From the NCBI GenBank assembly GCA_964461505.1, contig CAYWUW010000003.1, positions 37,680-101,679 of the forward strand: DNA of 64,000 nt, in the 5' to 3' direction. Origin of the DNA: an uncultured Candidatus Saccharibacteria bacterium. Lineage in GTDB: Bacteria > Patescibacteriota > Saccharimonadia > Saccharimonadales > HK-STAS-PATE-42. Within the stretch, counting starts at the first letter, position 1. Each line of letters opens with the position of its first letter. The translations under genes and the position numbers were made by a program. Positions 1-43,532 of this stretch are shown here, one piece after another. Below the pieces are notes generated by a model that saw only the letters and a program-made list of their open reading frames with translations, was not told the origin of the DNA and did not search any database.

Positions 1-48
1 AGCCCAGCAGAGACACTGCAAAAATTAATAATAGTTTAAGTTTTTTCA
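1..48 (-). CDS. 5' end of an unidentified gene running off the left edge (N-terminus MKKLKLLLIFAVSLLG, signal-peptide-like)
   Basis: Minus-strand ATG at 48-46 with GGAGGGGG about 10 nt upstream. Hydrophobic N-terminus. Only 16 codons are visible. Confidence 0.25.
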
Positions 49-60
49 TTGGTGGGATTG

Positions 61-96
61 CCCCCTCCGCCCTGCGGGCACCTCCCCAAGGGGAGG
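61..96. repeat. C/G-rich hairpin repeat (CCCTC...GAGGG type)
   Basis: ccccctccgccctgcgggcacctccccaaggggagg. Related copies at 3661-3720, 13591-13623 and 35889-35926. Confidence 0.5.
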
Positions 97-108
97 ATTA
101 AGTGGTGT

Positions 109-723
109 TTAGAAGTTTACGGTTGGAACGCTTTGGGCTCCTTCAGAAGCCTCGAAGTATGGTTTGGAATCGTAATTGAACAACTTGGCTAAAACTAGAG
201 TTGGGAAGCGCTTAACTTTTGTGTTGTATTCGCGAAGAACTGTGTTGTAATCTGCGCGAGAAACTTGAATGCGGTTTTCGGTTCCTTCTAGTTGAACTTG
301 CAGATCTTTAAAGTTTTGGGTAGCGGTAAGTTGTGGGTAGCTTTCGGCTACGGCAAGCAAGCGGCCTAGAGCTTGGCTAAGTTCGCCTTGGGCATTTTGG
401 TAATCTTGCAGTTGCTGCGGCGTGGCTTTTGAAGGATCGATTGTAATTTGTGTGGCTTTGGCACGAGCTTCAACAACTTGATTTAGGGTTTCTTGTTCAA
501 AATCTGCGGCTCCTTTAACTGTGTTGACTAAATTTGGAATTAGATCTGCCCGGCGCTGATATTGAGTTTGAACATTGGCGAATGAGCTATCCACCTTTTG
601 GTTGAGACCAACTAGGTTGTTGTAGCCGGCCACAAGCCAGATAATTAAAATTAGAACTATTCCGGCCAGAACTGCCCTGGTAGTTTGTTTTTTGCTGTAT
701 TCTTTGCCTTTAACTTTGACCAT
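109..723 (-). CDS. lemA: LemA family membrane protein
   Basis: N-terminal TM followed by the typical LemA block YNNLV..QKVDSSFANVQTQYQRRADLIPNLV. 204 aa. Confidence 0.85.
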   Translation of the reverse strand: MVKVKGKEYSKKQTTRAVLAGIVLILIIWLVAGYNNLVGLNQKVDSSFANVQTQYQRRADLIPNLVNTVKGAADFEQETLNQVVEARAKATQITIDPSKATPQQLQDYQNAQGELSQALGRLLAVAESYPQLTATQNFKDLQVQLEGTENRIQVSRADYNTVLREYNTKVKRFPTLVLAKLFNYDSKPYFEASEGAQSVPTVNF

Positions 724-805
724 TTTAAACTCCTTTTTTCATACAAGAACAGTTGCTTAAGCTTAAGTATAACAAAAGTTAATTTGAGAGGAGTTTTTAG
801 AATGA

Positions 806-841
806 GATCCTCGATAAATTCTTGCGTAATTTTCAAGGATC
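806..841. repeat. Hairpin repeat, GATCCTCGATAAATTC...AATTTTCAAGGATC family
   Basis: Near-identical copy at 15290-15326. Ends GATCC/GGATC can pair. Confidence 0.6.
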
Positions 842-1000
842 GGCAGCAGATGATCCTTTCTGATTTTTTCTTCTCCCTCTTTTTGAATAAATAGAGGATA
901 GGATTCCTGCGCCAGGTGATCCCCCGAGTGGTTCGGCGCAGCTAAGCGGGATCGAGGATCTTTTTAGAACTTATTATAAGATTAAGATTTGGTATTAAGT

Positions 1001-2428
1001 TTAGATTTGGGATTCGACTTTTTCGGCCCATTCTTGCAGAGATTCAATCAGCTTTTGTTGCTTTGGTTTAAGGCTCGGCAGAAGTTGGGCGAGTTCTTGT
1101 TGGTAGGTTGCAAGAGGTGGAATATCGCCAGAACCATCTTTAAGCTTAAGCTGAAGATATTCTACCCAATCTAATTTTTCGGGCTGAGAGAGAGCTTTTG
1201 GGTAATTTCTGGCTTTATAGAGCGTTAGGAGTTTGGGTAAACGCGAATCTTCAAATTCAAATTTATTAAGCTTAAGATCTTTTAAAGAGGCTACGCGAAC
1301 AGCGGCCGAGGCGTTGCGGTCGGCATCGTTTAAGAATCCATCATAAAGTTGCAAATCAGGATCTGTTTTAGCTGGCCACTTTTTATCATCTGGCTTGTAG
1401 GCCTCGTAAACTTTTTGCGAAAACGAGGTTAGGTTGGCCTTAAGTTTAGCAAGATTTTGTTGGATTTGTTTTAGATCTAAATTGATGTTTTTAGCGGTTT
1501 GCGGTGTGATTACCTCTAACGGAGCAAGAGATGGGGCTTTATTGAATTGAACCATTTTAACTGGCAGGCGCTTTTCTTGGTATTCTCCTAAATGATTTTT
1601 GTTGGTGTAGGTAAGGCGCTTAAGTTGTGCGGGGCTAAGCTTAAAGAATTCAGTTGGATCGTAGCGGAGATCGTAAACAAGAATTCCGCCTGCACGCCCT
1701 GGAGTTGGGCAAAGTGGAAAAACGATGCTTGTGTGTAAATCACCACTTGGGAATCGTGGAGTTATATGCACGACTGGTTTGGGGGATTCGAGATCTAAAT
1801 AACTTGCGGCCATGTTTTTATCTTTAAGCTTAAGGTGAAAATCAAAGAGCTTGGGCTGCTTGAGTTTGATGAGGCGGGCGATATCTAGCGTAACTTCAAC
1901 ATCGCTTAGCGCATCGTGAGCGCTGGTGTGTTCTAGCTTGTTGGCTTTGGCAAGTTCTTCGAGCGTGTTGGTTGGAGTTCCGTCGGGCTTGAATGGCCAG
2001 TTGATGCCTTCTGGCCGCAAGGCTCTGGTGGTGCGCACTAAGCTTAAGATATCCCAGCGTGATCTGCCATCCTTCCACTGCCATTCGTAAGCATCATAAA
2101 AGTTTCGCCAGAGTGTGAAGCGCATAAACTCATCGTCAAAATCTATTGTGTTGAATCCTGTGATAATTGTGTTTGGAAGAAGGAGTTCTTGATGTAATTT
2201 TTTGAGGAATTCGGGTTCGCTGATGCCTTTTTGGGTGCTTTGTGGAGTTATTGCGGTGGTTAAAATTGCCCAGGGATTTGGCAAAACCTCTGGGTTAAGT
2301 TTAATTAGCCAATTGACGCGTTTGAGTTCTTGAAGATTTTCATCTGTTAGAATGGCGGCGAATTGCATTATGCGGTGGAGGCTGGGTTTGAGGCCGGTGG
2401 TTTCGAGATCGTAAAACAGAAAGTTCAT
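1001..2428 (-). CDS. sbcB: Exodeoxyribonuclease I
   Basis: MNFLFYDLETTG (DEDD exonuclease motif I), H-x4-D near ..TSAHDALSDV.., length about 475 aa. The ORF-track start at 2491 reads through a hairpin repeat, so the start was moved to the ATG at 2428. Confidence 0.8.
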   Translation of the reverse strand: MNFLFYDLETTGLKPSLHRIMQFAAILTDENLQELKRVNWLIKLNPEVLPNPWAILTTAITPQSTQKGISEPEFLKKLHQELLLPNTIITGFNTIDFDDEFMRFTLWRNFYDAYEWQWKDGRSRWDILSLVRTTRALRPEGINWPFKPDGTPTNTLEELAKANKLEHTSAHDALSDVEVTLDIARLIKLKQPKLFDFHLKLKDKNMAASYLDLESPKPVVHITPRFPSGDLHTSIVFPLCPTPGRAGGILVYDLRYDPTEFFKLSPAQLKRLTYTNKNHLGEYQEKRLPVKMVQFNKAPSLAPLEVITPQTAKNINLDLKQIQQNLAKLKANLTSFSQKVYEAYKPDDKKWPAKTDPDLQLYDGFLNDADRNASAAVRVASLKDLKLNKFEFEDSRLPKLLTLYKARNYPKALSQPEKLDWVEYLQLKLKDGSGDIPPLATYQQELAQLLPSLKPKQQKLIESLQEWAEKVESQI

Positions 2429-2454
2429 CTTAAGTTTAGTATAGCACTCGCCTT

Positions 2455-2489
2455 CTCTGTCGTCCTGAGCAAAGTCGAAGGCTTTCTGC
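2455..2489. repeat. Hairpin repeat, GTC(A/G)TCCTGAGC...GAAGG family
   Basis: ctctgtcgtcctgagcaaagtcgaaggctttctgc. Relatives at 11639-11685, 12786-12823 and 36425-36452. Confidence 0.6.
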
Positions 2490-2499
2490 ACAATTAAGC

Positions 2500-3408
2500 T
2501 TAGGCTAAAGCTTTGCCTTCGGAGCCGAAAGCGCGGATTTTTTCTTCGATAACCTCTTGAGTTGCGTCGTTGACTTGTTCCATTAATTTCATTACAGAAA
2601 ATTCGGCCGGATTATCTGCGAGGGCTTTTTCTAAGGCTTGACGGTGCGCAATGCGCACATCGGTATTAATATTGATTTTGGAAACTCCGATTTTGGCGGC
2701 TTCTTCAAAATAGAAGAGTGGCGTTCCGGAACCTCCGTGCAGGCTAACGGAACATGGCAAAGCGTTGCAAACTTCTTGCAGTAAACTTAAGTTTAGTTGT
2801 TTTGGGGCTGGATATGAGCCGTGAAGGTTTCCAACAGAGGCGGCAAAGATGTCGATATCGGTGTCATGAACGAATTCTAGAGCCGTTTTGGGGTCTGAAA
2901 AGTTCTTTTTAACTTCTTCGTAATCAATTTGTTCATCGTGGAGGTTAGAGCTTCCGGCAAAATAATGCATCTCGCTTTCTACTATAGCGCCGGTAAACCG
3001 GGCGTATTCGGTAACTTGTTTGGTTTTTTGAATGATTTCTTCTAGCGGAGCGGAATGATCTTTTTGAGAAATATCAATATGAACAAACTCAAAGCCGATA
3101 TCGATAGCCTCTTTGGCAAGCTTGACAGAAGGGCCGTGATCTAAATTGAGATAAACTTCGACGCCATATTCATCTTTATAATTATCAACAAGATCGCGGG
3201 CGTTTTCTAGGCCAATGGAATCTGCCTCTGATTCGCTAAGATTAATTATAACTGGAGCCTTAAGCTTAGCGGCGGCTTTGATAATAGAAATGAGGATGTC
3301 TTGGGAATCGATGTTAAACGCCCCCACGGCAAATTTTTGTTGATGAGCGCGCAGCATTAGCTGTCTAGCTTTAGAGGTTGAAGCGCGAATTTGTTTTAGA
3401 CTAGCCAT
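2500..3408 (-). CDS. fba: Class II fructose-1,6-bisphosphate aldolase
   Basis: FAVGAFNI.., LNLDHG, SLHGGSG blocks typical of class II (FbaA/KbaY) aldolases. 302 aa. Confidence 0.85.
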   Translation of the reverse strand: MASLKQIRASTSKARQLMLRAHQQKFAVGAFNIDSQDILISIIKAAAKLKAPVIINLSESEADSIGLENARDLVDNYKDEYGVEVYLNLDHGPSVKLAKEAIDIGFEFVHIDISQKDHSAPLEEIIQKTKQVTEYARFTGAIVESEMHYFAGSSNLHDEQIDYEEVKKNFSDPKTALEFVHDTDIDIFAASVGNLHGSYPAPKQLNLSLLQEVCNALPCSVSLHGGSGTPLFYFEEAAKIGVSKININTDVRIAHRQALEKALADNPAEFSVMKLMEQVNDATQEVIEEKIRAFGSEGKALA

Positions 3409-3520
3409 TCTTTTTTGTGTAAAGCTTTGCCCGCCGATGTAGCTTTAAACTTTTATTAAGCTTAAGTTTAGCATATTCTTGCCTAGGCATTGAAGCTTAA
3501 TTTTTTGCTTCTGTTTTTTT

Positions 3521-3720
3521 TGCGTAGCATGGATTCTGCTCTGCAGCGGGATGACGGAGGCGGGAACTTAAATCCAATCTAAGATTTGTCATCTCGAGCC
3601 TGCCGAGAGATCTCTTGGATACAGTTAAATCTTAGAATTCATCTTAAGTCTTCTTATTCCTCCCCCAGGGGAGAGCCTGCCCCGCATTCATCGCGGGGTG
3701 GCCTGAAAGGCCTGAGGGGG
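3521..3720. repeat. Cluster of three different intergenic hairpin repeats
   Basis: Three elements: 3521-3560 tgcgtagcatggattc..gggatgacggagg (inverted homolog at 7998-8037); 3587-3619 gtcatctcgagcctgccgagagatctc; 3661-3720 C/G-rich CCCC..GGGG hairpins. Confidence 0.6.
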
Positions 3721-3840
3721 CTTTTTAGAGTTTGTTAAGTTTAGCTTTTTAAAACTCTTAAGCTTGCATAGTTATAATTTTTAGAGTTAAAATGTTTGTT
3801 AAGTTTAGTGAAAAAGTAAGATTTTAGAGGATTATCATCA

Positions 3841-4752
3841 ATGCAGTTAGAAGAACTCCAAGCAGCTAGAAGTGCGGTTACAGAAATATCTGCAACAGAA
3901 TTTGCAGAGGAATTTAGTGGTGGTAAAAATCAAGCAGAAAGGCTAAGCCAATCTTGGCGAGTTCGTGGCGAAGGAGCCGGCCAGCAGGCTGTAAACTTAT
4001 ATGCTCTAGATCCGAAAGATGTGGTTATTGGGGGTGGTAGATGTAAAGGCTGGTGCCGGGTCTGTGCCATGCAATTAGTAGGAATGAGAAACGCAGCCAA
4101 CACAGAACTAAGAAGGGATGTTACTTTGAGTGATGAACCTCAGCCTGTTGCCAAGTGGGTAACGGAATTTGTAATCGGGATTAATGACAGCATGGGTGTA
4201 GGTAAGACGGCAGATGAAAGGCGTAAAGAACTCTTCTTACCGTTTGTAGATAGCCTGACCGTAGCTAGCAACAAATCGATGAAGGTGGCCAAAAAAGGAG
4301 CTCACCAAATAGCAGATTGGGTAGTGCGAGGTTTATTGCCAGAAGTTTTTGACGATGATAAGTTCAAGCAAGTTCCTGAAATGGCCGAACAAGCTGCTGC
4401 CTTGAGAGCCTTGGGTGAGATAACGAGCGAAAGCAAAGCTAGGCGTGCTAAGTATGCGGCTAGGCATGCTGAGTATGCGGCTGGGTATACTGGGTGTGCT
4501 GGGCATGTGGCTGGGTGTGCTGGGTATGCGGCTAGGTATGCTAGGCATGCTGGGTATGCGGCTAGGTATGCTGGGTATGCGGCTAGGTATAGCACCTTAG
4601 TGCTTGGCTGGGAGAAAGTTGGGGAATTGTTAGTGCCGGCTCTGGCTAAACTAATAGCAAGTTCAGTGCCGAAAGAACAAGCTCACTTGGCTGTGGCCAG
4701 AAGTAACGCTGATGTTGCTAGAGCTTTAGAAGAAATGGGAAAAGCGGCTTAG
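3841..4752 (+). CDS. Hypothetical protein with an internal A-(R/G)-(Y/H/C) tandem repeat
   Basis: 303-aa ORF with AGAGGA about 10 nt upstream of the ATG. No family recognised. No TAAGCTTA copies inside. Confidence 0.55.
   Translation: MQLEELQAARSAVTEISATEFAEEFSGGKNQAERLSQSWRVRGEGAGQQAVNLYALDPKDVVIGGGRCKGWCRVCAMQLVGMRNAANTELRRDVTLSDEPQPVAKWVTEFVIGINDSMGVGKTADERRKELFLPFVDSLTVASNKSMKVAKKGAHQIADWVVRGLLPEVFDDDKFKQVPEMAEQAAALRALGEITSESKARRAKYAARHAEYAAGYTGCAGHVAGCAGYAARYARHAGYAARYAGYAARYSTLVLGWEKVGELLVPALAKLIASSVPKEQAHLAVARSNADVARALEEMGKAA
4438..4590 (+). repeat. Imperfect 9/12-nt tandem repeat GCT-RGG-YAT(-GCG) inside the CDS
   Basis: Read directly: gctaggtatgctgggtatgcggctaggtat.... It encodes YAARHAEYAAGYTGCAGHVAGCAGYAARYARHAGYAARYAGYAARY. 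All frames are open on both strands here. Confidence 0.85.
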
Positions 4753-4780
4753 CAAAAAAACGCTCAAAAAGAAGTTAAGC

Positions 4781-6475
4781 TTAAGAAACAATGATTACCG
4801 GCGTGCCGATATCAACAAAGTTATAAACCCACTGCGCATCGTTGTTGCTCATTCCCATGCAGCCGTGCGAGGTGTTTTCAACGCCGAATTTGTTATGCCA
4901 GTAAACTCCGTGCATGGCGTAACCTCCGGCTTTAAAGTAGGCCACCCATTCAATGTTCGGAACCGAGTAATAATCTGCCGTTCCTGGCCGGCCACCGGTC
5001 ATGGTTTTAACTCTTACTTTGCGTAAAACAGAATAATTGCCAGTTGGCGTTGGTGTAGAGCTTTTGCCAGAAGACATTGGGAATGAGTTTACCAAATTGG
5101 CTCCTTCGTAGGCGTAAACTCTAAATTTAGAAATATCGGCAAAAATCCAGCGTCCGCCACTGGCGGCAATGTTTTCGGTTGGGGCGGCTTGCTCGCTAAA
5201 TTCAAGGTTGATGGTTCCAGATTTGGCACTTAGCAACAAGCTATAAAGTTGAGATTTGGCAGAACTTAAATTGCTGACCTGTTGGCCAGAAATTCCTTCT
5301 TGCAGCAAGATTTCGCCTCCCTCAATATTGGCAACCAGGCGCTTTTCCATCTTACGATTTAGTTTTTTTGCTAGATTATCTAAATAGGCATCGCTTTTGG
5401 CTTGGCTAAACTTAACTTGATAGCTAGAATTGGCAGGTTCTGGAGTTAGAACAATCCAATCTTTAAGTTCGCTAGAACTTGGCGAATAGCTTTTTTGTGG
5501 AGTTTGAAAACTGATTTTGTTTTGCAAATAAGAATTGGCTAAACTTAGCGGCTGAGTTAAATTATCAGCCAAGATATCTGGATTGACGTTGCTAATTGTT
5601 AAGTTTAGCTGCGAGGAATCTAGCTTGCTAAGCTTAAGTTGGAGCTCAGAAGCAAGTTTTTTGGAATCGATTCCAAGCCCTGATACTTCTGGAACAACTA
5701 TAAACTTATTTTGATCTGTATTAAATTCAACTTTAGCGTCTTCTGGCAAACGCCCATCAGAATAATTGATTTTGAGAAATTCCTTAAGCTTAGGTTCGCT
5801 GTAAGAGAACTTGGCTTCGATATTGCGAGATTTAAATAGTTCAAACGGCTTTTGCCAGAATCTGTAAGAATTAAGCTTAGCGCTTAGAGCTTGCTGACTT
5901 TGTTCAATTTGGGGGCTGAAGCCGAGTTCTTGCGGGGTAAAACTCTTGCTTTGATTTTGGTAACTTAAGTTTAGTTTATAGCCATCAAGTTGGTTATTGA
6001 TTTGCTGGAAGGCCTCTTGTTTGTTGCTACTTAAAGCTTGGCCAGCAAAAGTGGTTTTAGGCAAAATCTTATTTTTAAAGATTAAATTTGGTAGCAGGAA
6101 AAAGAGAAGTAGAAGGGTGGCTGGAATTAATCCAAAAAGAATTTTTTTAGATTTAAACTTAGTAAACTGAGTGAATTTAGATAATTTAGATTTCGCAACC
6201 GGAGCTAGAATTGAATTCGGAATTGGAGTTGGGATTTGGGCTTCGGGCTTTTTTGGTGATTTTTTAGAGTTGGACTTAAGTTTAGCAGAAGCTTTAGATT
6301 TGGTCTTTTTTTTAGAGTTAGCTTGCAGAGTTGGTTTGGAGCTGGTTTTTTTGCCAGGGTTTGGATTTTGAGTAGAACTCAAATTTTGAGCCGAGCTGCT
6401 TGTTGAGCTATCTGCCCCGCTACTTTCGGCTAAGCTTAACTTACCGAGAGATTCTGAAATATGGATATGTCTCAC
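4781..6475 (-). CDS. L,D-transpeptidase (YkuD domain) with K/S-rich N-terminus and one TM
   Basis: C-terminal YAMHGVYWHNKFG..TSHGCMGM (His..Cys YkuD catalytic motif). 564 aa. Confidence 0.8.
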   Translation of the reverse strand: MRHIHISESLGKLSLAESSGADSSTSSSAQNLSSTQNPNPGKKTSSKPTLQANSKKKTKSKASAKLKSNSKKSPKKPEAQIPTPIPNSILAPVAKSKLSKFTQFTKFKSKKILFGLIPATLLLLFFLLPNLIFKNKILPKTTFAGQALSSNKQEAFQQINNQLDGYKLNLSYQNQSKSFTPQELGFSPQIEQSQQALSAKLNSYRFWQKPFELFKSRNIEAKFSYSEPKLKEFLKINYSDGRLPEDAKVEFNTDQNKFIVVPEVSGLGIDSKKLASELQLKLSKLDSSQLNLTISNVNPDILADNLTQPLSLANSYLQNKISFQTPQKSYSPSSSELKDWIVLTPEPANSSYQVKFSQAKSDAYLDNLAKKLNRKMEKRLVANIEGGEILLQEGISGQQVSNLSSAKSQLYSLLLSAKSGTINLEFSEQAAPTENIAASGGRWIFADISKFRVYAYEGANLVNSFPMSSGKSSTPTPTGNYSVLRKVRVKTMTGGRPGTADYYSVPNIEWVAYFKAGGYAMHGVYWHNKFGVENTSHGCMGMSNNDAQWVYNFVDIGTPVIIVS

Positions 6476-6533
6476 CCTGACAAAACTTAATTTTGTTTTC
6501 TATCCTAATTATACAACAAAAATTCAGAAAATT

Positions 6534-7544
6534 CTACTTCTTTTTTGATGACTTCTTAGCTTTAGATTTTACACTAGTCTTCTTTTTAACAGAAGCTTTT
6601 TTGGAATTGTTTTTTTTAGAATTAGTTTTAGGTTTGCTTTTAGCGCTTGCGGTTGGAGTGGATTTTTTGGAATTAGTGGTGGCTTGTGCTGCTTTTGGAG
6701 TTGGTTTTGAATTTTGCTTGGCCTCTTTGCCGGTTAGAACTTTAACTGTTGGCTTGGATTGTTCTTCAGTAACTTCGGCATGTTTTTCTTGTTGCAGAAT
6801 AAAATATTGTTGGAAGATGGCTACAAGAGCTCCGGCTGCAAGATAAAAGCTGATTGCACCTTCTACGCTTAATGAAATCCAGCCGAAAAGCAGAACCATG
6901 ATGTAGGGCATTGAGTTTTGCAACTTTTCGTTTGGATCGTCGGTTTGGGCTTTTTTTGGAGGTAGAGTTTGGCGAACTTGCAAAAATTGAATTAAGATTG
7001 AGGCAATTGCAACAACTAGAACTGGGATGTAGACTTCGTTATTGGCAAATGGACGCCGGGCGAGATCTGCCCAATCGGCAAAAGTTGTAATTTGATGACC
7101 TCCGCTAGAAAGTACATCTTTAACGTAACTTAAATCTTTAACAGGGCCATAAAGTAGATTAGCGAGGTTTTGGGTTCCGTTGAAGGCTGTTCTAACTGCT
7201 GAGTAAATGGCGATAAAAAGTGGGAGCTGCACAATAAGAGTTCCGATAGAAGAAAATGGGCTAATGCCATATTTTTTGTAAACTGCCACCGTTTCGCGAT
7301 TGACTTTTTCGAGTATGGCGCGATCTTTTGAGCCTTTAGATTGAGCGCGAATCTTTTTTACCTCTGGGGCAACTTTTTGCATAACACGAGTTTGGTGAAT
7401 CTGCTTTTTGATGAGCGGCCACATTAATAAGCGAACGATAATTGTGAAAACTAGAATGGCGAGGCCAAGATCTTGCCCTGGAATAAAGTTTTGAATTGTA
7501 ATAAGAAGGTTAAGAACTGGTTTTACAAAAATTGTTTGCCACAT
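6534..7544 (-). CDS. yidC: Membrane protein insertase YidC with a lysine-rich C-terminal tail
   Basis: GLAILVFTIIVRLLMWPL..K, multi-TM 60-kDa inner membrane insertase core, then an approximately 90-aa K/S/T-rich tail. Confidence 0.85.
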   Translation of the reverse strand: MWQTIFVKPVLNLLITIQNFIPGQDLGLAILVFTIIVRLLMWPLIKKQIHQTRVMQKVAPEVKKIRAQSKGSKDRAILEKVNRETVAVYKKYGISPFSSIGTLIVQLPLFIAIYSAVRTAFNGTQNLANLLYGPVKDLSYVKDVLSSGGHQITTFADWADLARRPFANNEVYIPVLVVAIASILIQFLQVRQTLPPKKAQTDDPNEKLQNSMPYIMVLLFGWISLSVEGAISFYLAAGALVAIFQQYFILQQEKHAEVTEEQSKPTVKVLTGKEAKQNSKPTPKAAQATTNSKKSTPTASAKSKPKTNSKKNNSKKASVKKKTSVKSKAKKSSKKK

Positions 7545-7769
7545 AAAATTTAGAAAAAGGTTTTTTAGATTTGGTTGTTTGTTGTTTAAAGAAGATTATA
7601 GCTTAAAACTATTCTTTGAGAAAAGTGATTAAGCTTAATTCCTTTTTTTATATCCCCAGTCAAAAGAAAGACATCAATAAGAGTAGAGCTTATTCCAGCT
7701 TGTCTGGAATATCCCTTACTTTTTATAGAAGATAGCCCGAATAAATCGAACTAAGCTTAACTCCCGCCG

Positions 7770-35948: not shown

Positions 35949-36389
35949 ATGCTAGATAAAATTTTGAATCACTTTGAGGATTTTGAACCGAAATGGAGGT
36001 TTAAGCTTAATGTTGTTGGCTTGGTGTTCTGCTTTGTGGTGTTCTGGCTAATTCATCAGGCTAAGCTTAAAATAGATATGAAGTTGCCAGAGTTTATTAA
36101 CCTGCCAAACTTTATTGGTAATGTAGATTCGGTGATTTTGGCTCTGGCTGGCGGATTTTTGGTTGGTTGGATTCTGGCTCGATTTACTAAGCTTAATGGT
36201 TCTAGAATTTTTAGAATTGGAGTTTTTGCCGGAACCTTAATTGGCCTGATGCAAAATGTTCTAATTGAAACTAGCTTTGGCATGAAGCTTTTGAATCAAC
36301 CAAATGTTTCGGATCCGCTGGATGTTTTTTGGGGAACGGTTTTTTGCCTTATTGCCTGTTTTGTAAGCTTTAAAACTGAGCAGATTTAA
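35949..36389 (+). CDS. Hypothetical membrane protein
   Basis: MLDKILNHFE... with four hydrophobic segments. The ORF-track N-terminus (35886) is translated repeat sequence. Confidence 0.45.
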   Translation: MLDKILNHFEDFEPKWRFKLNVVGLVFCFVVFWLIHQAKLKIDMKLPEFINLPNFIGNVDSVILALAGGFLVGWILARFTKLNGSRIFRIGVFAGTLIGLMQNVLIETSFGMKLLNQPNVSDPLDVFWGTVFCLIACFVSFKTEQI

Positions 36390-36424
36390 GCTTAATCTAA
36401 ATTAATTGAACTGAAACAAGATTA

Positions 36425-36519
36425 TGTCATCCTGAGCGAAGCTGAAGGATCTTGATCTTCTGTTCAGACTAGACCTGTACTAAAATGGAGATCTCTCGAC
36501 ATAAGCTCGAGATGACAAA
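36425..36519. repeat. Two adjacent hairpin repeats downstream of trpS
   Basis: 36425-36452 tgtcatcctgagcgaagctgaaggatct; 36487-36519 ggagatctctcgacataagctcgagatgacaaa. Confidence 0.65.
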
Positions 36520-36522
36520 TTA

Positions 36523-37548
36523 TTAGTCTCTTAGCCCAACGGCTTTTTGAACTTTTTGTAGTGTTTGATCTGCAACTTCTCGCATTTTTTGTTCGGAAGA
36601 TTTAAGCTTAGCTTCCAGAACATTCTGATCTACCTTTTGAAAATTATCTTGGAGTTCTGTAAGAGTTTTTTCTACGGCAGCAGCAACTCTTTTTTTAAGT
36701 TCGCCATACTGAGTTTGGCCGACGAATTCTTGATTAACTTGAGCTTGAGTTTTTTGTTCGAGAAGAGCTAAGAGCACGAGCAGATTGGTGATTCCGGGTT
36801 GGTTAAGCTTATCAAAATTGATTTTGCCAACACTGTCGGTTGTGGCGGAGATGACTTTTTTGGCAGCGAGTTTTGGATCGTCAAATAAAAGAATGGTTCC
36901 GTTTGGATCTTTTACGGATTTGCTCATCTTTTTTTGAGGATTGGTTAAGCTCATGATTCTAATTGAATCTTGCTGCCCGGCGAATTCAACTTGTTCTTTA
37001 ATTTCTGCCGGAGCTTGAAAGACATCTCCGAATTTATTGTTAAACCTTTCGGCAAGATCTCGTGTGAATTCTAGATGTTGGCGCTGATCTTCGCCCACGG
37101 GAACGTATTTTGCGCCGTAAAGCAGCATATCTGCCGCCATTAAAACTGGGTAATCAAAGAGCCCGGCTGAGACGAACTCTACGTCTTTTCGCTCGGCTTT
37201 ATCTTTAAATTCAGTCATTCTAGAAAGAACTCCAAAACTGGCAAAGTTATTTAAGATTATGGCCAGCTCGGAATGTGTGGAGATTCTGCTTTGGCGGTAA
37301 AGTTCAACGTTTTTTAAATCAATTGGTAATCCGGCCGCCACAAAAAGCCGCAGATTCTTGATGCTGTTTGCGTAAAGATTGTTGTGATCAACGGGAGTTG
37401 TGAATGAATGGAGATCGGGCACAAAAAGTGCGACCTGGTAATCTTTTGATTTTTGATGAGCCATCTTAATTAGAGGTTGAATCGCGCCAAGGTAATTTCC
37501 GAGAGTTAGCTCATCATTACAGCGGATTCCAGTTAAAATAGTTTGCAT
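36523..37548 (-). CDS. trpS: Tryptophan--tRNA ligase (core copy)
   Basis: MQTILTGIR..LTLGNYLG (HIGH-like), KMSKS present. An alternative start at 37575 would add 9 aa. Confidence 0.9.
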   Translation of the reverse strand: MQTILTGIRCNDELTLGNYLGAIQPLIKMAHQKSKDYQVALFVPDLHSFTTPVDHNNLYANSIKNLRLFVAAGLPIDLKNVELYRQSRISTHSELAIILNNFASFGVLSRMTEFKDKAERKDVEFVSAGLFDYPVLMAADMLLYGAKYVPVGEDQRQHLEFTRDLAERFNNKFGDVFQAPAEIKEQVEFAGQQDSIRIMSLTNPQKKMSKSVKDPNGTILLFDDPKLAAKKVISATTDSVGKINFDKLNQPGITNLLVLLALLEQKTQAQVNQEFVGQTQYGELKKRVAAAVEKTLTELQDNFQKVDQNVLEAKLKSSEQKMREVADQTLQKVQKAVGLRD

Positions 37549-37622
37549 AGTATTTTTTCTTTCTAATCCATCCATGGCCCTGGCAAAGATGGATCTTAAT
37601 TATTTAAGTTTGATTATAGACT

Positions 37623-37650
37623 AAAAAACCTCCGTGGTAAGTAGCGGAGG
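37623..37650 (-). terminator. Intrinsic terminator within the trpS leader (attenuator)
   Basis: Minus strand CCUCCG-CUACUUACCA-CGGAGG followed by UUUUUU, about 50-75 nt upstream of trpS. Confidence 0.65.
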
Positions 37651-37680
37651 TTAAAATTAAGATTTTATTTAATACAAAAA

Positions 37681-37743
37681 CTAAGAGCTACTTACCAAAA
37701 GCCAAGTAGTGTTCCAGTATAGAGCTGTATTAAAAATTAACAT
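37681..37743 (-). CDS. Candidate 20-aa leader peptide MLIFNTALYWNTTWLLVSSS (two Trp codons)
   Basis: ATG 7 nt downstream of a TATACT -10 box. TGG codons at 37716-37714 and 37704-37702. The ORF covers the antiterminator arm. Confidence 0.55.
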   Translation of the reverse strand: MLIFNTALYWNTTWLLVSSS

Positions 37744-37750
37744 GATTTAA

Positions 37751-37779
37751 AGTATATCAGCTTATTAAGCTTAAGTCAA
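37751..37779 (-). promoter_or_regulatory. Sigma-70-like promoter TTGACT-17-TATACT for the trpS leader
   Basis: Read directly on the minus strand. The -35 overlaps the tyrA stop codon. Confidence 0.6.
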
Positions 37780-38496
37780 ACCATCTAGTTTATCTCGGAG
37801 TTTATCTACGTGGTTGGCGAATTCATCACGAACTTTTTGGGCGTATGGGTTATCTTTATGAACAGAATCTATGAGTTCCCTGCTTTCGATTTCGGCAACC
37901 TTGCTTAAGCTTAGTAATTTTGTAAAAGATGGAGTCGTAATGCCATGTTCTTCGAGTTTAAACGGAGCGAGAGTTTCGGAAACAAAGAAGGTTAGAGCAT
38001 GCGTGTAGGCCATAGCTTGATCATGCTCTGCGGCCGTCATCTGAATGATGTTCAACTTAAGTTTAGCGCCACAGTATTCAAGAAGACTTTCGGCGAGAGC
38101 TCCATTGAATTCGCAAACGATTAATTTAAGATTTTTTGTGGATTTTTTGGCGGATTGTGGGCCAAATAGCGGATGCGTAATAAGCAAGTTATGGTGAGCC
38201 GGAAGTGCATTTTTGATGAGTTCTAGCGGTTTAAGCTTAATAGAACAAACATCTACCAAAAGAGATTCTTTTTTAAGATATGGTTTAAGTTCTTTAAGAA
38301 CTTTTGGGTAAGCATTAAAAGTGACGGAAAGAATTACAATATCTGATTTAAAAACTTTAAGACGCTCTTCTTCGCTAGAATCTCGCCCAATCATCTTAAT
38401 TTCAGAAGCGTAACTTTTAAAAAGCTTTGCTAAGAGCTTGGCAAAGCTCCCTCTTACGATTATTCCAATGGTTGGTTTTTTATCTTTTTTTAACAC
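37771..38496 (-). CDS. tyrA: Prephenate/arogenate dehydrogenase family protein
   Basis: N-terminal Rossmann-like IGIIVRGSFAKLL, LITHPLFGPQS (THPMFGP motif). GTG start. Confidence 0.7.
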   Translation of the reverse strand: MLKKDKKPTIGIIVRGSFAKLLAKLFKSYASEIKMIGRDSSEEERLKVFKSDIVILSVTFNAYPKVLKELKPYLKKESLLVDVCSIKLKPLELIKNALPAHHNLLITHPLFGPQSAKKSTKNLKLIVCEFNGALAESLLEYCGAKLKLNIIQMTAAEHDQAMAYTHALTFFVSETLAPFKLEEHGITTPSFTKLLSLSKVAEIESRELIDSVHKDNPYAQKVRDEFANHVDKLRDKLDGLT

Positions 38497-38660
38497 TTTT
38501 GATTATTATTTATTGCTTATTGTTGATTTTTGCTTGTCTTGCTTGATTGGTGTAAGGTCTAACTCGTTCTGAATCTTTTCTAATATTATATAAGAAAGGC
38601 CCGGAGATTGCGCGCCTCTTGCTTAAGCTTAGAGGATGAGCGTAAAGAAGTTTGTTAAGC

Positions 38661-39242
38661 TTAAGTTAAACTTGGGGCGAGACTTGGGGCAAGTTCTTCT
38701 GCGCCGACAATTCTACATGTTACTGGGCCGAGCAGCACTGCCGGGGCTTGGCTAGGATTAACATTAGGTAGAGTCGTGCCTGAGAATTTAAGGAACGGTG
38801 CCTCTTCAGCGGGTACGAAAGAGCAGCCTAGAGGATCAGCTTCTCTTCTAGTTAAGCCCAGACCATTAAGCTGCCCAGAATCTTGTCTCCCGAGTACTAA
38901 TGTACCAAAGCCACGGCTTAGCTTAAGTTTAGTTGCCGGAAATAGAACTTCGCCACGAGCACGAACAAGTTCGAAAGCAGATACGATGGCTCCTAACATG
39001 TCTTCTAGGTCGACATGGGCACCACGAGATGACATTATCTTCAAAAAGCGTTCGCGATCTTGCTCTCCTCTAACCACTCCCATTAGAAACTCAACGGGAG
39101 GTTTTTTGAAAACCTGACCTAGAGATCTTGCGCGTCCTTTTTGACCATGCGGATATTGATAGTGTTCTGGTAACTCTAGAACTGGCCTAGAAATTACTAG
39201 ATCTTTTGGTTCGAGTGTTTTTGGTGCTGAGTTTCTTGCCAT
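38661..39242 (-). CDS. Hypothetical protein (orphan inside a direct-repeat-flanked insertion)
   Basis: 193-aa ORF. No family recognised. A 113-aa antisense ORF also exists. Confidence 0.4.
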   Translation of the reverse strand: MARNSAPKTLEPKDLVISRPVLELPEHYQYPHGQKGRARSLGQVFKKPPVEFLMGVVRGEQDRERFLKIMSSRGAHVDLEDMLGAIVSAFELVRARGEVLFPATKLKLSRGFGTLVLGRQDSGQLNGLGLTRREADPLGCSFVPAEEAPFLKFSGTTLPNVNPSQAPAVLLGPVTCRIVGAEELAPSLAPSLT

Positions 39243-39298
39243 AAAGATATAATTATAGCAGATATATACTCTCTAGTCTAGCTTAAGCTTAGGTGATG

Positions 39299-40555
39299 CT
39301 AGAGGATGAGCGTGGCGAGACCGAGGAATGCCATAAAGCCTAGAACGTCGGTTCCAGTTGTAATAAAGATTGTGGCGGAGCTGGCCGGATCTTTGCCGAG
39401 GCGCTTCATAACAAGCGGAACGATTGTTCCGAACAAGGCGGCAACAATTAAGTTTATGACCATAGCCAGAGCCAAAACGATGGCTAATCTAACATCGTGA
39501 TCTTTAGCCAAGACGATAGCGGCGACCAAAAAGCCGTTGATAAAACCGTTGATTAAGCTGGCTCCAACCTCATTTTTGAGGGTTTTGAAAAATGATTTTA
39601 AGCTAACTTGGCCAAGAGCGATTCCACGAACCATAACAGCCATAGTTTGAGTGGCGGCGTTTCCACCCATTCCGGCAACTATTGGCATGTAGACTGCGAG
39701 CAAAACAAATTTAGAGATTGTTCCTTCAAAAAGCCCGACTGTGAAGGCTGCTAAAAATGCTGTTGCAAGATTAATAATTAACCATTTGTAACGGAACGAA
39801 ACTTTGGCTTTGATAGGATCTTTAACGCCTTCTTCTTGGCGAACTCCGGCAAAATCGTAAAGGGAGGCGGATTCACTTTTTTCCATAGCTTGCAGAACAT
39901 CATCAGAATAGATTATTCCCGCAACTCCATTATCATCCATCACAACAACTTTGTTATGCGGGTGAGTTTGAAAAAGTTCTTCAACCTCTTTTTGGGTTGC
40001 TGTTTTATGGATGGTGGCGATTTTTTTAACAAGCTTGCCAACTTTTTCGGATGATCGATTTAAGCCTAGTGCAGCGCCAGGAAGGTGCCCAACAAGTTGG
40101 CCTTCTTTTAGAACTAGCGTTACAGGAATTTTTCCGGTTCGCCTTTCGTGAAGCTTAATTTTTTTAGCGGTATGTTCGATGTTGTCGCCATCATCAACCT
40201 GAACATAGTTCACACTCATCAAAGCAGCGGCAGAATCTGATTCTAAGTAAAGCAGATCTTTAACTGCGTTTTGTAAATCTTTACTAAGTTTTTTGATGAT
40301 TGTTTTGCGGCGGCGCGGGCCAAAAAGATGGAGGATGTCGGTGGCATCATCAGGATCTAGCTTTTCGAGAATAGCCATCAAAGAATCTTCTGAAAGATTG
40401 GTAACGATATCTTTTTTTGTGGGCTTAGTTTGGCTGGCTAGAATTGCAATCTGCGTTTCAAGATCTTGTTCTTTAAAAATTTTGAGGCGATGTTTGGAAT
40501 TTATTGCAACCTCTTTACTAATTGCAAAAAGCTCGGCCGATTCTTTAAAGTTCAT
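39299..40555 (-). CDS. mgtE: Magnesium transporter MgtE
   Basis: MgtE N-domain, CBS pair, C-terminal TM domain ...MGGNAATQT..., TDVLGFMAFLGLA. Confidence 0.9.
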   Translation of the reverse strand: MNFKESAELFAISKEVAINSKHRLKIFKEQDLETQIAILASQTKPTKKDIVTNLSEDSLMAILEKLDPDDATDILHLFGPRRRKTIIKKLSKDLQNAVKDLLYLESDSAAALMSVNYVQVDDGDNIEHTAKKIKLHERRTGKIPVTLVLKEGQLVGHLPGAALGLNRSSEKVGKLVKKIATIHKTATQKEVEELFQTHPHNKVVVMDDNGVAGIIYSDDVLQAMEKSESASLYDFAGVRQEEGVKDPIKAKVSFRYKWLIINLATAFLAAFTVGLFEGTISKFVLLAVYMPIVAGMGGNAATQTMAVMVRGIALGQVSLKSFFKTLKNEVGASLINGFINGFLVAAIVLAKDHDVRLAIVLALAMVINLIVAALFGTIVPLVMKRLGKDPASSATIFITTGTDVLGFMAFLGLATLIL

Positions 40556-40609
40556 GTTTGTTTTTTAGATTAAACTTAAGTTCTTTAAGCTTAATAATAG
40601 CATATATGC

Positions 40610-40798
40610 TTACACGGTGCCTTGTTCTTCGATTACTATTCTGACAGTCAGACCTAATTGCTCTGCAACCATTATAGTCCATGAAAGATCTGGGAGTTTG
40701 TTTGCGCGATAGGCAGCAGGTAGGGGGATATTTGGAGATGCTTCTGTAGCACTGACCAAAGCAGCTTTAGCCTGTTCTTTAATTTGATCGATTGGCAT
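40610..40798 (-). CDS. Small hypothetical protein
   Basis: 62-aa ORF next to tRNA-Gln. Confidence 0.3.
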   Translation of the reverse strand: MPIDQIKEQAKAALVSATEASPNIPLPAAYRANKLPDLSWTIMVAEQLGLTVRIVIEEQGTV

Positions 40799-40871
40799 AG
40801 CTTGATGAAGTATAACTTTATGACGTATATCCTGAATGATTAGGTCTAAGAGGTGGATCTCGTAAGTTGAA

Positions 40872-40946
40872 TGGCTGGGGCGGTAGGGGTCGAACCTACG
40901 ATCTTCGGTACCAGAAACCGCTGCCGTACCACTTGGCCACGCCCCA
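40872..40946 (-). tRNA. tRNA-Gln (anticodon CTG), CCA encoded
   Basis: Reverse complement tggggcgtggccaagtggtacggcagcggtttctggtaccgaagatcgtaggttcgacccctaccgccccagcca. Confidence 0.85.
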
Positions 40947-40968
40947 TTTCCTGCTATAATTTTAACAT

Positions 40969-41739
40969 ATGAAGATAAGAAAAATCTTGCGGATAGTTGC
41001 TTTAAGTTTAATAGTTCTGCTGGCTGCGGTTTTGGTTGGCGGAATTAGTGTTTTTAGAGCTAATGAGGTGCAGGCTCCAAAAGTTAGGGATGAAGCAGCG
41101 CATAAAGAATCTGGTGAAAAAGAGACGGAAGCGACTAAGCTTAATATTACAGATCCGCAAAGTGTGTATGTTTTAGTTAATAAGAACAATCCTTTGAATC
41201 CTTTAGAATATCGGCCGGCAGATTTGGTGGCAGATGTTGTGCCAACCACGGCGAGTGATTCTAAAGATGAAAGATCGGTGCGCGAACTAGTGAAGGCAGA
41301 TTTGGTGCAAATGTTTGCGGATGCTAAAAGTTCTAAGCTTAATTTGGTTATGAACAGCGGATTCCGTTCTAGCACCGAGCAGGCTTTTTATTACAATAAT
41401 TATGTTCGGCAAAGTGGTGAGCTGGCGGCAAATAAGTTTTCTGCTAGGCCAGGTTATAGTGAACATCAAACTGGGTTAAGCTTAGATATTAGCTACGCCG
41501 ATCGAAGTTGTTATCTAGAAGAATGCTTTGGCGAAACGGAAGCTGGCAAATGGTTGGCAGCAAATGCTCATAAATATGGCTTTATTTTGCGTTATCCAAA
41601 AGAAAAGGAAGACATTACTGGCTATCAATATGAGCCTTGGCACTTTAGGTATGTTGGCAAAGATGTTGCTAGTAAGATTTTTGGGCAGAATCTAACTTAT
41701 GAAGAATATTTGGCTAAGCTTAATTTAATCAAGATATAA
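40969..41739 (+). CDS. D-alanyl-D-alanine carboxypeptidase (VanY/M15 family)
   Basis: SGFRS..EQ, SEHQTGLSLDI, EPWHFRYVG. Confidence 0.85.
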   Translation: MKIRKILRIVALSLIVLLAAVLVGGISVFRANEVQAPKVRDEAAHKESGEKETEATKLNITDPQSVYVLVNKNNPLNPLEYRPADLVADVVPTTASDSKDERSVRELVKADLVQMFADAKSSKLNLVMNSGFRSSTEQAFYYNNYVRQSGELAANKFSARPGYSEHQTGLSLDISYADRSCYLEECFGETEAGKWLAANAHKYGFILRYPKEKEDITGYQYEPWHFRYVGKDVASKIFGQNLTYEEYLAKLNLIKI

Positions 41740-41850
41740 AAGAGCTGGAATTGAATTCCACAAAGCGGGAAGAAAAAGGCTATTGACTGAGCTTAAGCTT
41801 AAGCGTAATATCTTAAGGTAAAGTACTAAGTTTTTAAGAAGGAGAGAAAT

Positions 41851-42180
41851 ATGGTACCAAGCTTAAGAAAATACATTAAACAACAAGAGATTCTAGTTAT
41901 TGCGATTGGAATTGTTCTGGGTTTTGCGCTAAAAGATTTTGTGGAAAGCTTTATTAGATCTTTTATAACTCCACTTTTAGATAAGCTTTATGGCGGAGCT
42001 GGAAGTTTAACTGCCAAAACAGTTGATGTTGGTGGAGTAAGGTTTAAACCAGGCGATTTTGCAGATGCAACAATAACTTTTGCGGCAATTATTTTGGTAG
42101 CCTATGTTGCTGTTTACACTTATAACACCGCAACTCATCAACTTCGCCCTAAAGAAGAAAAATCTAAAACTAAAAAATAG
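41851..42180 (+). CDS. mscL: Large-conductance mechanosensitive channel
   Basis: FIKQQEILVIAIGIVLGFALKDFVESFIRSFITPLL. 109 aa with two TMs. Confidence 0.75.
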   Translation: MVPSLRKYIKQQEILVIAIGIVLGFALKDFVESFIRSFITPLLDKLYGGAGSLTAKTVDVGGVRFKPGDFADATITFAAIILVAYVAVYTYNTATHQLRPKEEKSKTKK

Positions 42181-42200
42181 ATTTAAGCTTAGTTTTTTAT

Positions 42201-42238
42201 AATCTCTCTTAAATTATTCAATTTTGGAGAGATTTTTT
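42201..42238. terminator. Bidirectional hairpin terminator between mscL and the M50 protease gene
   Basis: aatctctc-(loop)-gagagatt followed by TTTT. Confidence 0.5.
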
Positions 42239-42851
42239 AGAATAGATTTAAAATGTATTGATTGATGCTCTTTAAGATTTGATTGATATTCGGGTAAATT
42301 ATTACCATAAAAAAGATGATCGAGGCAAAACCAAAAGATTCAATTTTATCCATAATGCTGCGTAAAGAATCTGGCGCAATTGCGTATAGAACACGAGAAC
42401 CATCAAGAGGTGGAAATGGGATTAAGTTAAAAACAGCTAGGCCGACATTAACACTGGTAAGGTAGGCTAAGAAAATAGAGAGGTAACCTGCTTGATAACC
42501 GACTACCGAAAGTATTAGGCCGGCTAAAATTGCAAGAAGCAAATTAGAAAGTGGGCCTACAACAGCAACTAGAGCCATGCCGTATTCTTGCCCTTTTAGA
42601 GCCCATGGCGTAACTTGAACTGGCTTGGCGGCTCCAAAAGGCTGAGCTCCAACGAGATTTAAGATTAGCGCTAAGGCAATGGTTGTGAGTGGATCTATAT
42701 GGTGCAAAGGATTTAAGCTTACGCGTCTGTTGACTCTTGAGCTGCCATCTCCTAAAAAGTAGGCCACTAGACTGTGCATGCTTTCGTGCACACTAATTGA
42801 AAGTGCTAGAGCGGTTATGACGATTGCGATTTCGGCTAGATCTAAATTCAT
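42237..42851 (-). CDS. Site-2 protease family (M50) zinc metalloprotease
   Basis: HESMHSLVA (HExxH) within a polytopic membrane protein. Confidence 0.7.
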   Translation of the reverse strand: MNLDLAEIAIVITALALSISVHESMHSLVAYFLGDGSSRVNRRVSLNPLHHIDPLTTIALALILNLVGAQPFGAAKPVQVTPWALKGQEYGMALVAVVGPLSNLLLAILAGLILSVVGYQAGYLSIFLAYLTSVNVGLAVFNLIPFPPLDGSRVLYAIAPDSLRSIMDKIESFGFASIIFFMVIIYPNINQILKSINQYILNLF

Positions 42852-43026
42852 GCTTTTGGGTTTAATTTTAGCAGATAAGTTTAATGCTGATCTAGCTATT
42901 AAGCTTAAGATTTTTGGGTTGGGATTTTAAGCTTAAGATTATTGTACTTAAGCTTAGCGTGGTTTTTGTGGGAAGCTTTATCTGAAGTTATCCAGAGATT
43001 GGCTGGGTAAGAACTGCACTAGGTTT

Positions 43027-43491
43027 TTATTTATAATCCGCAATGATTATCTTTTTTTGATTCATCATTATTTTGTAGGCATCTGGCTTATTCATTAGTT
43101 CGTTCATGTTTTTGGGAACAATTTGCCAGCTTAGATCAAACTTATCTTTACACCAACCACACTGTTCGGATTCTTTTACGCTTGAGAGCTTCTTCCAGAA
43201 ATAGTCGATCTCTGCTTGATCTGCACAGCTAACGGCAAAAGAGATTGCTTCGCTAAACTTAAATTCTGGCCCTGCGTTAATTGCTGTAAAGTGGGTGCCT
43301 TCAAGTTCAAACTCTACTACCAAGGGTTTGCCCGCTAAGCTTAATTGAAAATCTGCCAAGCCCTCTTCTACGCTGTTGGGGTAGTATTGAATGGAGAGTA
43401 TCTTGCTGTTTGTAAAAACTGATGTATAGAACTCGGCTGCCTCTAGAGCATTGCCATCAAACCATAAGTTTGGGACTATTTTTTGTAACAT
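43027..43491 (-). CDS. VOC/PhnB-like (3-demethylubiquinone-9 3-methyltransferase domain) protein
   Basis: MLQKIVPNLWFDGNALEAAEFYTSVF... typical N-terminus of this family. Confidence 0.6.
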   Translation of the reverse strand: MLQKIVPNLWFDGNALEAAEFYTSVFTNSKILSIQYYPNSVEEGLADFQLSLAGKPLVVEFELEGTHFTAINAGPEFKFSEAISFAVSCADQAEIDYFWKKLSSVKESEQCGWCKDKFDLSWQIVPKNMNELMNKPDAYKIMMNQKKIIIADYK

Positions 43492-43532
43492 ATGAACTCC
43501 TCTTATCTTTTAGGTAACTATCTTTAATATTA

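Follow-up and report, generated by a model that had tools for sequence, protein, structure and literature searches.

We describe here a short palindromic word that is extremely over-represented in DNA of an uncultured Candidatus Saccharibacteria bacterium. The window analyzed (the whole 64-kb stretch of contig CAYWUW010000003.1, letters 1–64,000) contains 102 exact copies of the octamer TAAGCTTA, the central part of the 10-bp palindrome YTAAGCTTAR; 101 of these copies lie between positions 758 and 43,343 and a single one is found at 53,328. YTAAGCTTAR is a lineage-specific, highly iterated palindrome (HIP) of the kind known as HIP1 from cyanobacteria, and it is vertically inherited in one Saccharibacteria clade. 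We tentatively favor the explanation that the word may label kin DNA during natural transformation. An earlier reading of the letters without database searches (the sequence-only reading) had counted roughly 100 copies up to 43.5 kb, which is very close to the exact number, and had suspected a source within the Candidate Phyla Radiation; searches with TypA and Obg indeed place the window in Saccharibacteria. The precedent of HIP1, a dominant central C-to-T variant, the boundaries of islands devoid of the word and its distribution across relatives go beyond that reading.

Abundance and extent of the word

The core is defined here as positions 1–43,500 without the stretch from 23.8 to 27.1 kb. 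The extreme over-representation claimed from the letters alone was upheld by all three null models applied. In 100 dinucleotide-preserving shuffles of the whole window TAAGCTTA occurred 3.57 times on average and 12 times at most, and under a third-order Markov model of positions 1–43,500 it ranks first among the 8-mers with a z of 54. Synonymous-codon shuffles of the 36 core genes, which preserve each protein as well as the codon usage, gave 3.1 ± 1.8 copies (maximum 10) compared with the 67 copies present in the coding sequence. The excess amounts to about 28-fold relative to the dinucleotide shuffles and about 22-fold relative to the codon shuffles, and the density in core DNA is about one copy per 400 bp or 2,300–2,500 copies per Mb. 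A codon or dipeptide bias as the cause is ruled out by the synonymous-codon shuffles, and so is an RNA family, the window containing just three tRNAs.

The full word is a 10-bp palindrome, YTAAGCTTAR being matched by 92 of the 101 copies. The base preceding the octamer (position −1) is T in 68 and C in 28 copies, and the base following it (position +8) is A in 63 and G in 36 copies. Outside these 10 bp we find just a mild preference for C at position −2, which explains an excess of CTTAAG, and no other bias in the flanks. The spacing between the copies is close to random (coefficient of variation 0.90 compared with 0.99, p = 0.18).

A dominant one-base variant

According to the sequence-only reading about 12 further copies deviate at one position. 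This number is far too low; the recount gave 115 sites, of which 61 are TAAGTTTA/TAAACTTA, i.e., the central C is changed to T on one strand (T variant). Among the twelve classes of one-base variants this is the sole class with strong enrichment (61 core sites compared with 3.4 expected, 18-fold), with 3 sites in foreign DNA, and 12 sites fall into the second most frequent class. The 2 sites of the double variant TAAATTTA do not rise above background. The T variants share the flank preference of the perfect word and show no strand bias (34 vs. 27), and in coding sequence 21 of them are amino-acid-changing and 18 are of the synonymous type.

Placement in genes and effect on proteins

Coding sequence holds 67 of the 101 copies and intergenic DNA 27, while the remaining 7 supply the TAA stop codon of a gene. 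As had been claimed, the coding copies use the two stop-free frames without exception: 30 are read as xTA-AGC-TTA (Leu-Ser-Leu) and 37 as xxT-AAG-CTT-A (Lys-Leu). With about one copy per 530 bp in coding sequence, the intergenic density is about twice as high. One of the 7 stop codons is provided by the first of two overlapping copies, TAAGCTTAAGCTTA at 22831..22844 on the plus strand (site list and frame analysis), which ends a gene of 493 amino acids at 21,352–22,833. A perfect copy is present in 25 of the 36 core genes and a perfect or T-variant copy in 31 of them. The genes with copies include those of L1, L11, TypA, GltX, Obg and SbcB, all named in the sequence-only reading, whose peptides VKLKVG and VSLRLE (TypA) and LSLTLA (L1) are each present. 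Its mention of copies in trpS is right for the class-Ib synthetase gene at 36,523–37,575, which holds two copies of the word, but not for a second such gene at 54,226–55,227, which has no copy.

The word has left its mark on the proteins. Leu-Ser-Leu occurs 37 times in the core proteins compared with 10.4 times expected from composition (3.6-fold over), and 35 of these 37 instances are encoded by YTAAG[C/T]TTA; in the foreign genes of the window the tripeptide is found 3 times with 4.0 expected. In a codon alignment of TypA the copies are located at fixed codon positions with zero indels, and amino acid replacements track the word, VGL of the outgroup being VSL in the clade and K-A/T being K-L/F. 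We conclude that the copies arose by point substitution and that these substitutions were frequent enough to alter protein sequences. The idea of a spreading palindromic micro-element, which had also been put forward, is contradicted by this origin, by the in-frame copies and by the lack of conservation past 10 bp. We also rejected a repeat family or a mobile or repetitive element (of the repetitive extragenic palindrome type or similar to miniature inverted-repeat transposable elements), as the flanks are unrelated and the TypA sites are free of indels.

Individual sites in typA illustrate these changes. The copy at 16381..16388 (plus strand, frame 1, V-S-L; alignment column 1051) is the perfect word in the window and in the relatives L004 and L007 and a T variant in L011, while motif-poor relatives have decayed forms and the outgroups have V-G-L. 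At 16094..16101 (plus strand, frame 2, V-K-L; column 764) most relatives have TAAGTTTA (K-F) and the outgroups K-A or K-T, and parsimony favors a T-to-C gain in the window lineage. The T variant TAAGTTTA at 15551..15558 (plus strand, column 218) is kept in 6 of the 7 clade members compared, and some T variants (columns 218 and 1591) are common to lineages whose divergence is basal in the clade. These old T sites together with the gain at column 764 argue that the T variants are not merely decay products.

Conservation and distribution in relatives

The alignable orthologous blocks have 69–79% nucleotide identity and are mostly coding, so that conservation in noncoding DNA is barely sampled. 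In the comparison with motif-rich relatives 21 of 42 aligned perfect sites are identical, compared with 13.5% for control 8-mers of the same composition (p = 1.6e-8), and a further 5 of the 42 are T variants in these relatives. With motif-poor relatives conservation is at background (1/12 and 0/11). The commonest change at aligned sites is the interchange of the perfect and the T form. The word is preferentially conserved at orthologous positions in motif-rich relatives.

Whether close relatives share the word had been proposed as a check, and they do so within a narrow Saccharibacteria clade. Motif-rich are L004 (TypA 90% identical) with 22 perfect copies in 11.9 kb, 21 of them within the first 5.8 kb, and L007/L366 (TypA 78%), which belong to one Joint Genome Institute contig and have 38 perfect copies and 17 T variants and 38 and 20, respectively, per about 21 kb. 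L364, a 744-kb contig, with 20 perfect copies and 9 T variants, and L365, the complete genome CP060233.1 of assembly GCA_023898665.1, with 10 of each, are motif-rich as well. L006, L009 and L010 (TypA 84–85%) are motif-poor with 5 + 6, 0 + 3 and 1 + 2 perfect and T copies, and JAKOXJ01 and JAUPUA01 are among the accessions of motif-poor lineages. In L011 (CALMQB010000002.1; TypA 83%) the T form dominates: 5 perfect copies, 33 T variants and 6 double variants are found in 21.8 kb, TAAGTTTA/TAAACTTA is the commonest 8-mer class and the perfect palindrome is rare, which means either that C-to-T changes have eroded the palindrome or that the lineage has changed its "dialect." In 60-odd Saccharibacteria loci from outside the clade (TypA at most 71%; each up to about 22 kb long) we counted 0–2 copies per locus.

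In a neighbor-joining tree of TypA L007 is the first branch, and the pair of window and L004 is sister to (L011, (L010, (L009, L006))). Since motif-rich lineages flank the motif-poor ones on both sides in this tree, motif richness is ancestral to the clade, has been lost in one subclade and has been transformed in L011. We also scanned public collections for pairs or triplets of TAAGCTTA within 30 bp. Among the matches listed there was no dispersed motif-dense contig and no motif-rich phage; the viral matches listed are chance pairs and the metagenome matches listed are mostly local tandem repeats.

Restriction of the word to long-resident DNA

The copies are found in two motif-rich core segments. 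The first (1..23817) has 58 copies of TAAGCTTA (758 to 23,810) in addition to T variants, and the second (27138..43500) has 43 copies (27,366 to 43,336). Between them there is a 3.3-kb islet (23818..27137) in which the perfect word is missing and the T variant occurs once. Downstream of the core the acquired island B1 (43501..54128) contains 1 perfect copy (53,328) in 10.6 kb, and the foreign segment B2 (54129..64000) contains 0 in 9.9 kb. Taken together, the islet, B1 and B2 have 1 copy in 23.8 kb compared with 101 in the 40.2 kb of the core. In the sequence-only reading the enrichment extended across 1–43.5 kb; it stops abruptly at 43.5 kb and has a gap at 23.8–27.1 kb, boundaries that had been missed, and both coincide with compositionally foreign DNA.

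With the word masked, the tetranucleotide frequencies of the core segments correlate among themselves at 0.85–0.94, whereas the motif-free stretches correlate with the core at 0.35–0.57 (islet 0.39–0.51, B1 about 0.5, B2 about 0.55). The GC skew is about +0.15 in the core segments (about +0.16 in 1..23817) and about 0 in the motif-free stretches, including the islet, with −0.03 in B2. We therefore conclude from its lack in compositionally foreign stretches that the word marks long-resident DNA. Island-like stretches in L004, L364 and L365 are likewise without the word, and the motif-free cargo in motif-rich loci comprises a Glug protein with a DPPY-motif methylase, a helicase with TerB and a serine recombinase.

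The junction at 43.5 kb is not an assembly artefact because it is reproduced by contig L001 from another sample and another sequencing run, which is 99.94% identical over 42,659–44,310 and spans the junction; a chimeric assembly at this position is ruled out by this independent contig. Contig L002 is 99.96% identical over 59,062–54,128 and then continues with unrelated sequence containing a gene of 170 amino acids (L002 4,937–5,550). Thus 54.1 kb is a real module boundary, and the module at 54–59 kb is present in at least two genomic contexts.

Comparison with known systems

HIP1 (GCGATCGC) and the alternative HIPs are, like the word described here, 8-bp palindromes that are often palindromically extended to 10 bp. 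Elhai has linked HIP1 to cognate methyltransferases and lists HIP densities of 300–2,700 per Mb (PMC4390886), a range that includes the density found here. YTAAGCTTAR contains a palindromic octamer that is at least 15-fold over-represented with hundreds to thousands of copies per Mb and whose conservation between genomes exceeds that of controls, as HIP1 has been found by Xu et al. (2018) to be conserved beyond control palindromes (PMC5861425). Further common properties are the presence inside as well as between genes, the origin by substitution, the loss or the swap for a variant word in some lineages and the conservation of single-mismatch forms. In contrast to HIP1 the word is AT-rich, contains stop codons and is found in Patescibacteria, and the favored one-base deviation is central, whereas it is located at the outer bases in HIP1. 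It is not HIP1 in the strict sense, the octamer being TAAGCTTA and not GCGATCGC and the host being a Saccharibacterium and not a cyanobacterium. HIP1 increases the efficiency of natural transformation in a way that depends on methylation (10.1101/2024.09.10.611283) and has therefore been proposed as an uptake signal (10.64898/2026.06.24.733823).

With the DNA uptake sequences (DUS) of the Neisseriaceae and the uptake signal sequences (USS) of the Pasteurellaceae the word has in common that it is a short lineage-specific sequence in the range of 9–12-mers, found across the core genes in both orientations about once per kb or more, that it is scarce in recently acquired DNA and has a measurable effect on proteins, and that related lineages show a "dialect"-type variation (the T form in L011). 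The density of DUS and USS is about 1 per kb, so that the word is two to three times denser, in agreement with the sequence-only reading. Unlike DUS and USS it is palindromic, and no receptor (ComP or the proposed PpdA/ComN) was found in the sequence read. The host phylum is naturally competent, as in the DUS and USS systems: ComEC-dependent natural transformation has been demonstrated in Saccharibacteria, and ComEC, DprA, ComFC and type IV pili are reported to be conserved across them (PMC10633639).

The mechanism that we propose below for YTAAGCTTAR would be similar to that of the RAATTY palindrome of Campylobacter jejuni. The methylated state of this short AT-rich palindrome (methylase CtsM) decides which DNA transforms; RAATTY is, however, abundant just through the AT-rich genome and not 30-fold over-represented. 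Words that are over-represented genome-wide, tied to recombination or repair and under-represented in foreign DNA are also known from Escherichia coli, namely, Chi and the biases caused by very-short-patch repair (CCWGG/CTAG). Chi is far rarer than the word here, and very-short-patch repair depletes the T-containing form, which is enriched here. Moreover, Chi is non-palindromic and strand-biased (PMC5861425), whereas YTAAGCTTAR is its own reverse complement and its T variants are found on both strands in similar numbers. As we read these comparisons, YTAAGCTTAR appears to be outside strict HIP1 (other sequence, other phylum) and outside DUS and USS (palindromic), yet it resembles both. Full-text literature searches turned up no publication on an uptake sequence in Saccharibacteria or Patescibacteria, and none in which YTAAGCTTAR is connected with Saccharibacteria.

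Possible function of the word

Our preferred explanation, which still falls a little short of being probable, is that the word might be a tag for kin DNA in natural transformation, acting in uptake or in recombination after uptake, with a site-specific methyltransferase or a binding protein as its probable reader. In this view a DNA-binding or DNA-modifying activity peculiar to the clade would recognize YTAAGCTTAR, and a methyltransferase acting on the AAGCTT/AGCT core is the most plausible candidate. The tag would favor motif-bearing DNA when it is taken up, or help it to survive and recombine once inside, and such a preference would give a transmission advantage to every motif-bearing allele, so that copies would both build up and stay in place. 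If the central cytosine is methylated, its deamination would yield TAAGTTTA/TAAACTTA as the single strongly enriched variant, and as the first C-to-T hit would destroy the methylation site, the double variant TAAATTTA would not be enriched. The word would be very rare (about one copy per several hundred kb as estimated from composition) in DNA with a high GC content, for instance in the Actinobacteria that are hosts of cultivated Saccharibacteria, and would therefore allow a good discrimination of self from host DNA.

The sequence-only reading had named both a DNA-uptake signal and a site for recombination or repair as candidate roles. These two roles are not separable by sequence alone, and both are indirectly supported by the absence of the word from the islands, its restriction to the clade, its conservation at orthologous sites, the competence of Saccharibacteria and the effect of HIP1 on transformation.

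Several points weigh against a tag for transformation. Absence from islands, clade restriction and site conservation would equally be expected under a repair-driven bias or for a structural binding site. The known DUS and USS are not palindromes, and the spacing of the copies is indistinguishable from random. Instead of a deamination product, the T form may represent a functional variant that is tolerated, because there are old T variants that are stable across lineages (TypA columns 218 and 1591) and because half of the coding T variants change an amino acid relative to the perfect word. In addition, about 190 kb of clade sequence were searched by Pfam and gene tables, and neither a cognate methyltransferase or Vsr-type nuclease nor a receptor pilin or competence gene came to light; the sole methylases found (HsdM, ParB-N6/N4 and DPPY-motif N6/N4) sit in motif-free islands. 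The unannotated core open reading frames (ORFs) of the window gave zero DNA-methylase signal, and there are no com or pilus genes within its 64 kb.

Among the rival explanations a neutral by-product of sequence-specific repair has to be considered. A methyltransferase combined with very-short-patch-type or methyl-directed mismatch repair would systematically resolve mismatches in favor of the word, and the copies would accumulate and be restored without having a purpose, a mechanism that was put forward for HIPs by Elhai in 2015 (PMC4390886). We regard this as unlikely here, even though a classical type II site lies within the palindrome, modification of the central cytosine is indicated by the dominant C-to-T variant, the interconversion of the perfect and the T form exceeds any other change at the sites and TypA column 764 shows an apparent return from T to C in the window. 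A bias from T:G to C:G covers this interconversion only and not the recruitment of about 160 sites from unrelated sequence, and it predicts that the T variant is depleted, whereas we observe an 18-fold enrichment. Furthermore, the core DNA read contains zero Vsr or methylase genes, and for HIP1 the conservation of the sites has been argued to favor selection instead (PMC5861425). The binding site of an abundant nucleoid-associated or chromosome-organizing protein, kept by selection for its role in the structure of the chromosome (the proposal of Xu et al., 2018, for HIP1), seems distinctly unlikely to us. A 10-bp palindrome fits a dimeric DNA-binding protein, one mismatched half-site is tolerated, the intergenic density is twofold higher and copies are conserved in coding as well as noncoding DNA (the aligned blocks being mostly coding). 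However, 40 kb show no regular spacing, the subclade of L006, L009 and L010 has lost the sites and yet kept genes and gene order, and no candidate protein was identified in the sequence read.

Very unlikely, in our judgment, is a mark of self that has its role in epigenetics or defence apart from transformation, i.e., the site of an orphan or restriction-linked methyltransferase with a function in gene regulation or in telling self from invading DNA by Chi-like protection. Such a mark would fit the HindIII-type core and the foreign DNA without the word, and a Chi-like role has been raised in a study on HIP1 (10.1101/2024.09.10.611283). A palindrome, however, lacks the orientation information that Chi uses, and coding copies at 1 per 530 bp are hard to square with regulation. 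Restriction sites are normally avoided in genomes, whereas the word is enriched 30-fold. A trivial cause, such as a repeat family, a miniature mobile element, a codon or dinucleotide bias or a contig that is chimeric at 43.5 kb, has a negligible chance of being correct. On its own the abrupt stop of the enrichment at 43.5 kb is compatible with a chimera, but the junction is also seen in the independent assembly described above, relatives from other samples have the word at matching codon positions, shuffles that keep dinucleotides or codons give about 3 copies, and copies with unrelated flanks are found in 25 of 36 core genes.

To our knowledge, proven DNA-uptake specificity is limited to two bacterial families. 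Within the Candidate Phyla Radiation YTAAGCTTAR could potentially be the first known signal by which kin DNA is recognized sequence-specifically in natural transformation, a palindromic uptake or recombination signal that is read by methylation, enables these epibionts to distinguish the DNA of their own clade from that of the hosts on which they feed and has been switched to a TAAGTTTA "dialect" in L011; taken as a whole, this far-reaching proposal is more doubtful than likely. If it is true that the word enhances transformation, adding the word together with its methylation to constructs could make the genetics of this Saccharibacteria clade much easier. HIP1 is only beginning to be understood in its function, and a word that is independent of it and just as extreme, from a phylum with natural competence, reduced genomes and host dependence, provides a second system for the origin and the readers of such words, with a built-in comparative panel of motif-rich lineages, a T-dominated lineage and lineages that have lost the word. 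The word further marks native DNA sharply off from acquired DNA in these genomes.

Gene content of the segments and neighboring observations

Pfam matches in the first core segment include LemA, SbcB, FBA, YkuD, YidC, RuvC, a LexA-like protein, L1, L11, GltX, TypA, Rpe and PEGA, and the second core segment encodes, among others, an amino-acid permease, a histidine kinase, OpgC, FKBP, Obg, the native class-Ib aminoacyl-tRNA synthetase, PDH, MgtE, VanY, MscL and an M50 peptidase. Over positions 1–43,500 the GC skew is uniformly positive (about +0.15) and the AT skew negative independent of gene orientation, and therefore the whole core stretch probably lies on one replichore.

The islet consists of five small ORFs (118–150 amino acids) without Pfam or PHROG matches and adjoins a tRNA-Met gene (26,969–27,045); direct repeats flanking it (23,818–27,137) were looked for and not found. 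Island B1 begins with a type I restriction-modification operon (hsdM, hsdS, hsdR) on the minus strand at 43,533–47,074. Its truncated hsdR encodes 288 amino acids comprising the N-terminal domain and the start of ResIII only and is cut exactly at the core junction, which points to DNA having been deleted or rearranged at this end of the island. B1 also encodes a ParB-N6/N4 DNA methylase (47,352–48,719), a large serine recombinase (51,922–53,238), a helix-turn-helix protein and several unknown proteins; a PHROG search of the island ORFs gave zero matches. The genome CP060233.1 (L365, about 3,613–4,884) has a large serine recombinase related to that of B1 and a short stretch similar to B1, the resembling parts of the window being 49,905–50,056 and 51,932–52,506, and we therefore conclude that related mobile elements circulate in the clade.

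Segment B2 contains the extra TrpS-type synthetase gene already mentioned, an AAA ATPase, a subtilase and unknown genes. A Trp-repressor-like gene (PF01371, gene table of L002) is located on the minus strand at about 57,558–57,815, near this second TrpS-type gene. This extra class-Ib synthetase, encoded on acquired DNA, could have a role in resistance or regulation.

In L004 (5,860–11,883) as in the window (43,501 onward) the genes of MscL and the M50 peptidase are followed a short distance downstream by the start of a motif-free island. The cargo is different, L004 having a Glug protein, a DPPY-motif N6/N4 methylase (read as type III Mod-like) and a cation-efflux gene, and the site may be an integration hotspot. 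Two core ORFs of the window are missing at the matching positions in the motif-poor L006. One of them (3,841–4,752) encodes a protein of 303 amino acids with an iterated AARYAGY-like peptide repeat. The other (8,570–9,310) is located between ruvC and the lexA-like gene and encodes a protein of 246 amino acids (hyp246) with zero Pfam matches, which by eye looks like a small-molecule class I S-adenosylmethionine-dependent methyltransferase.

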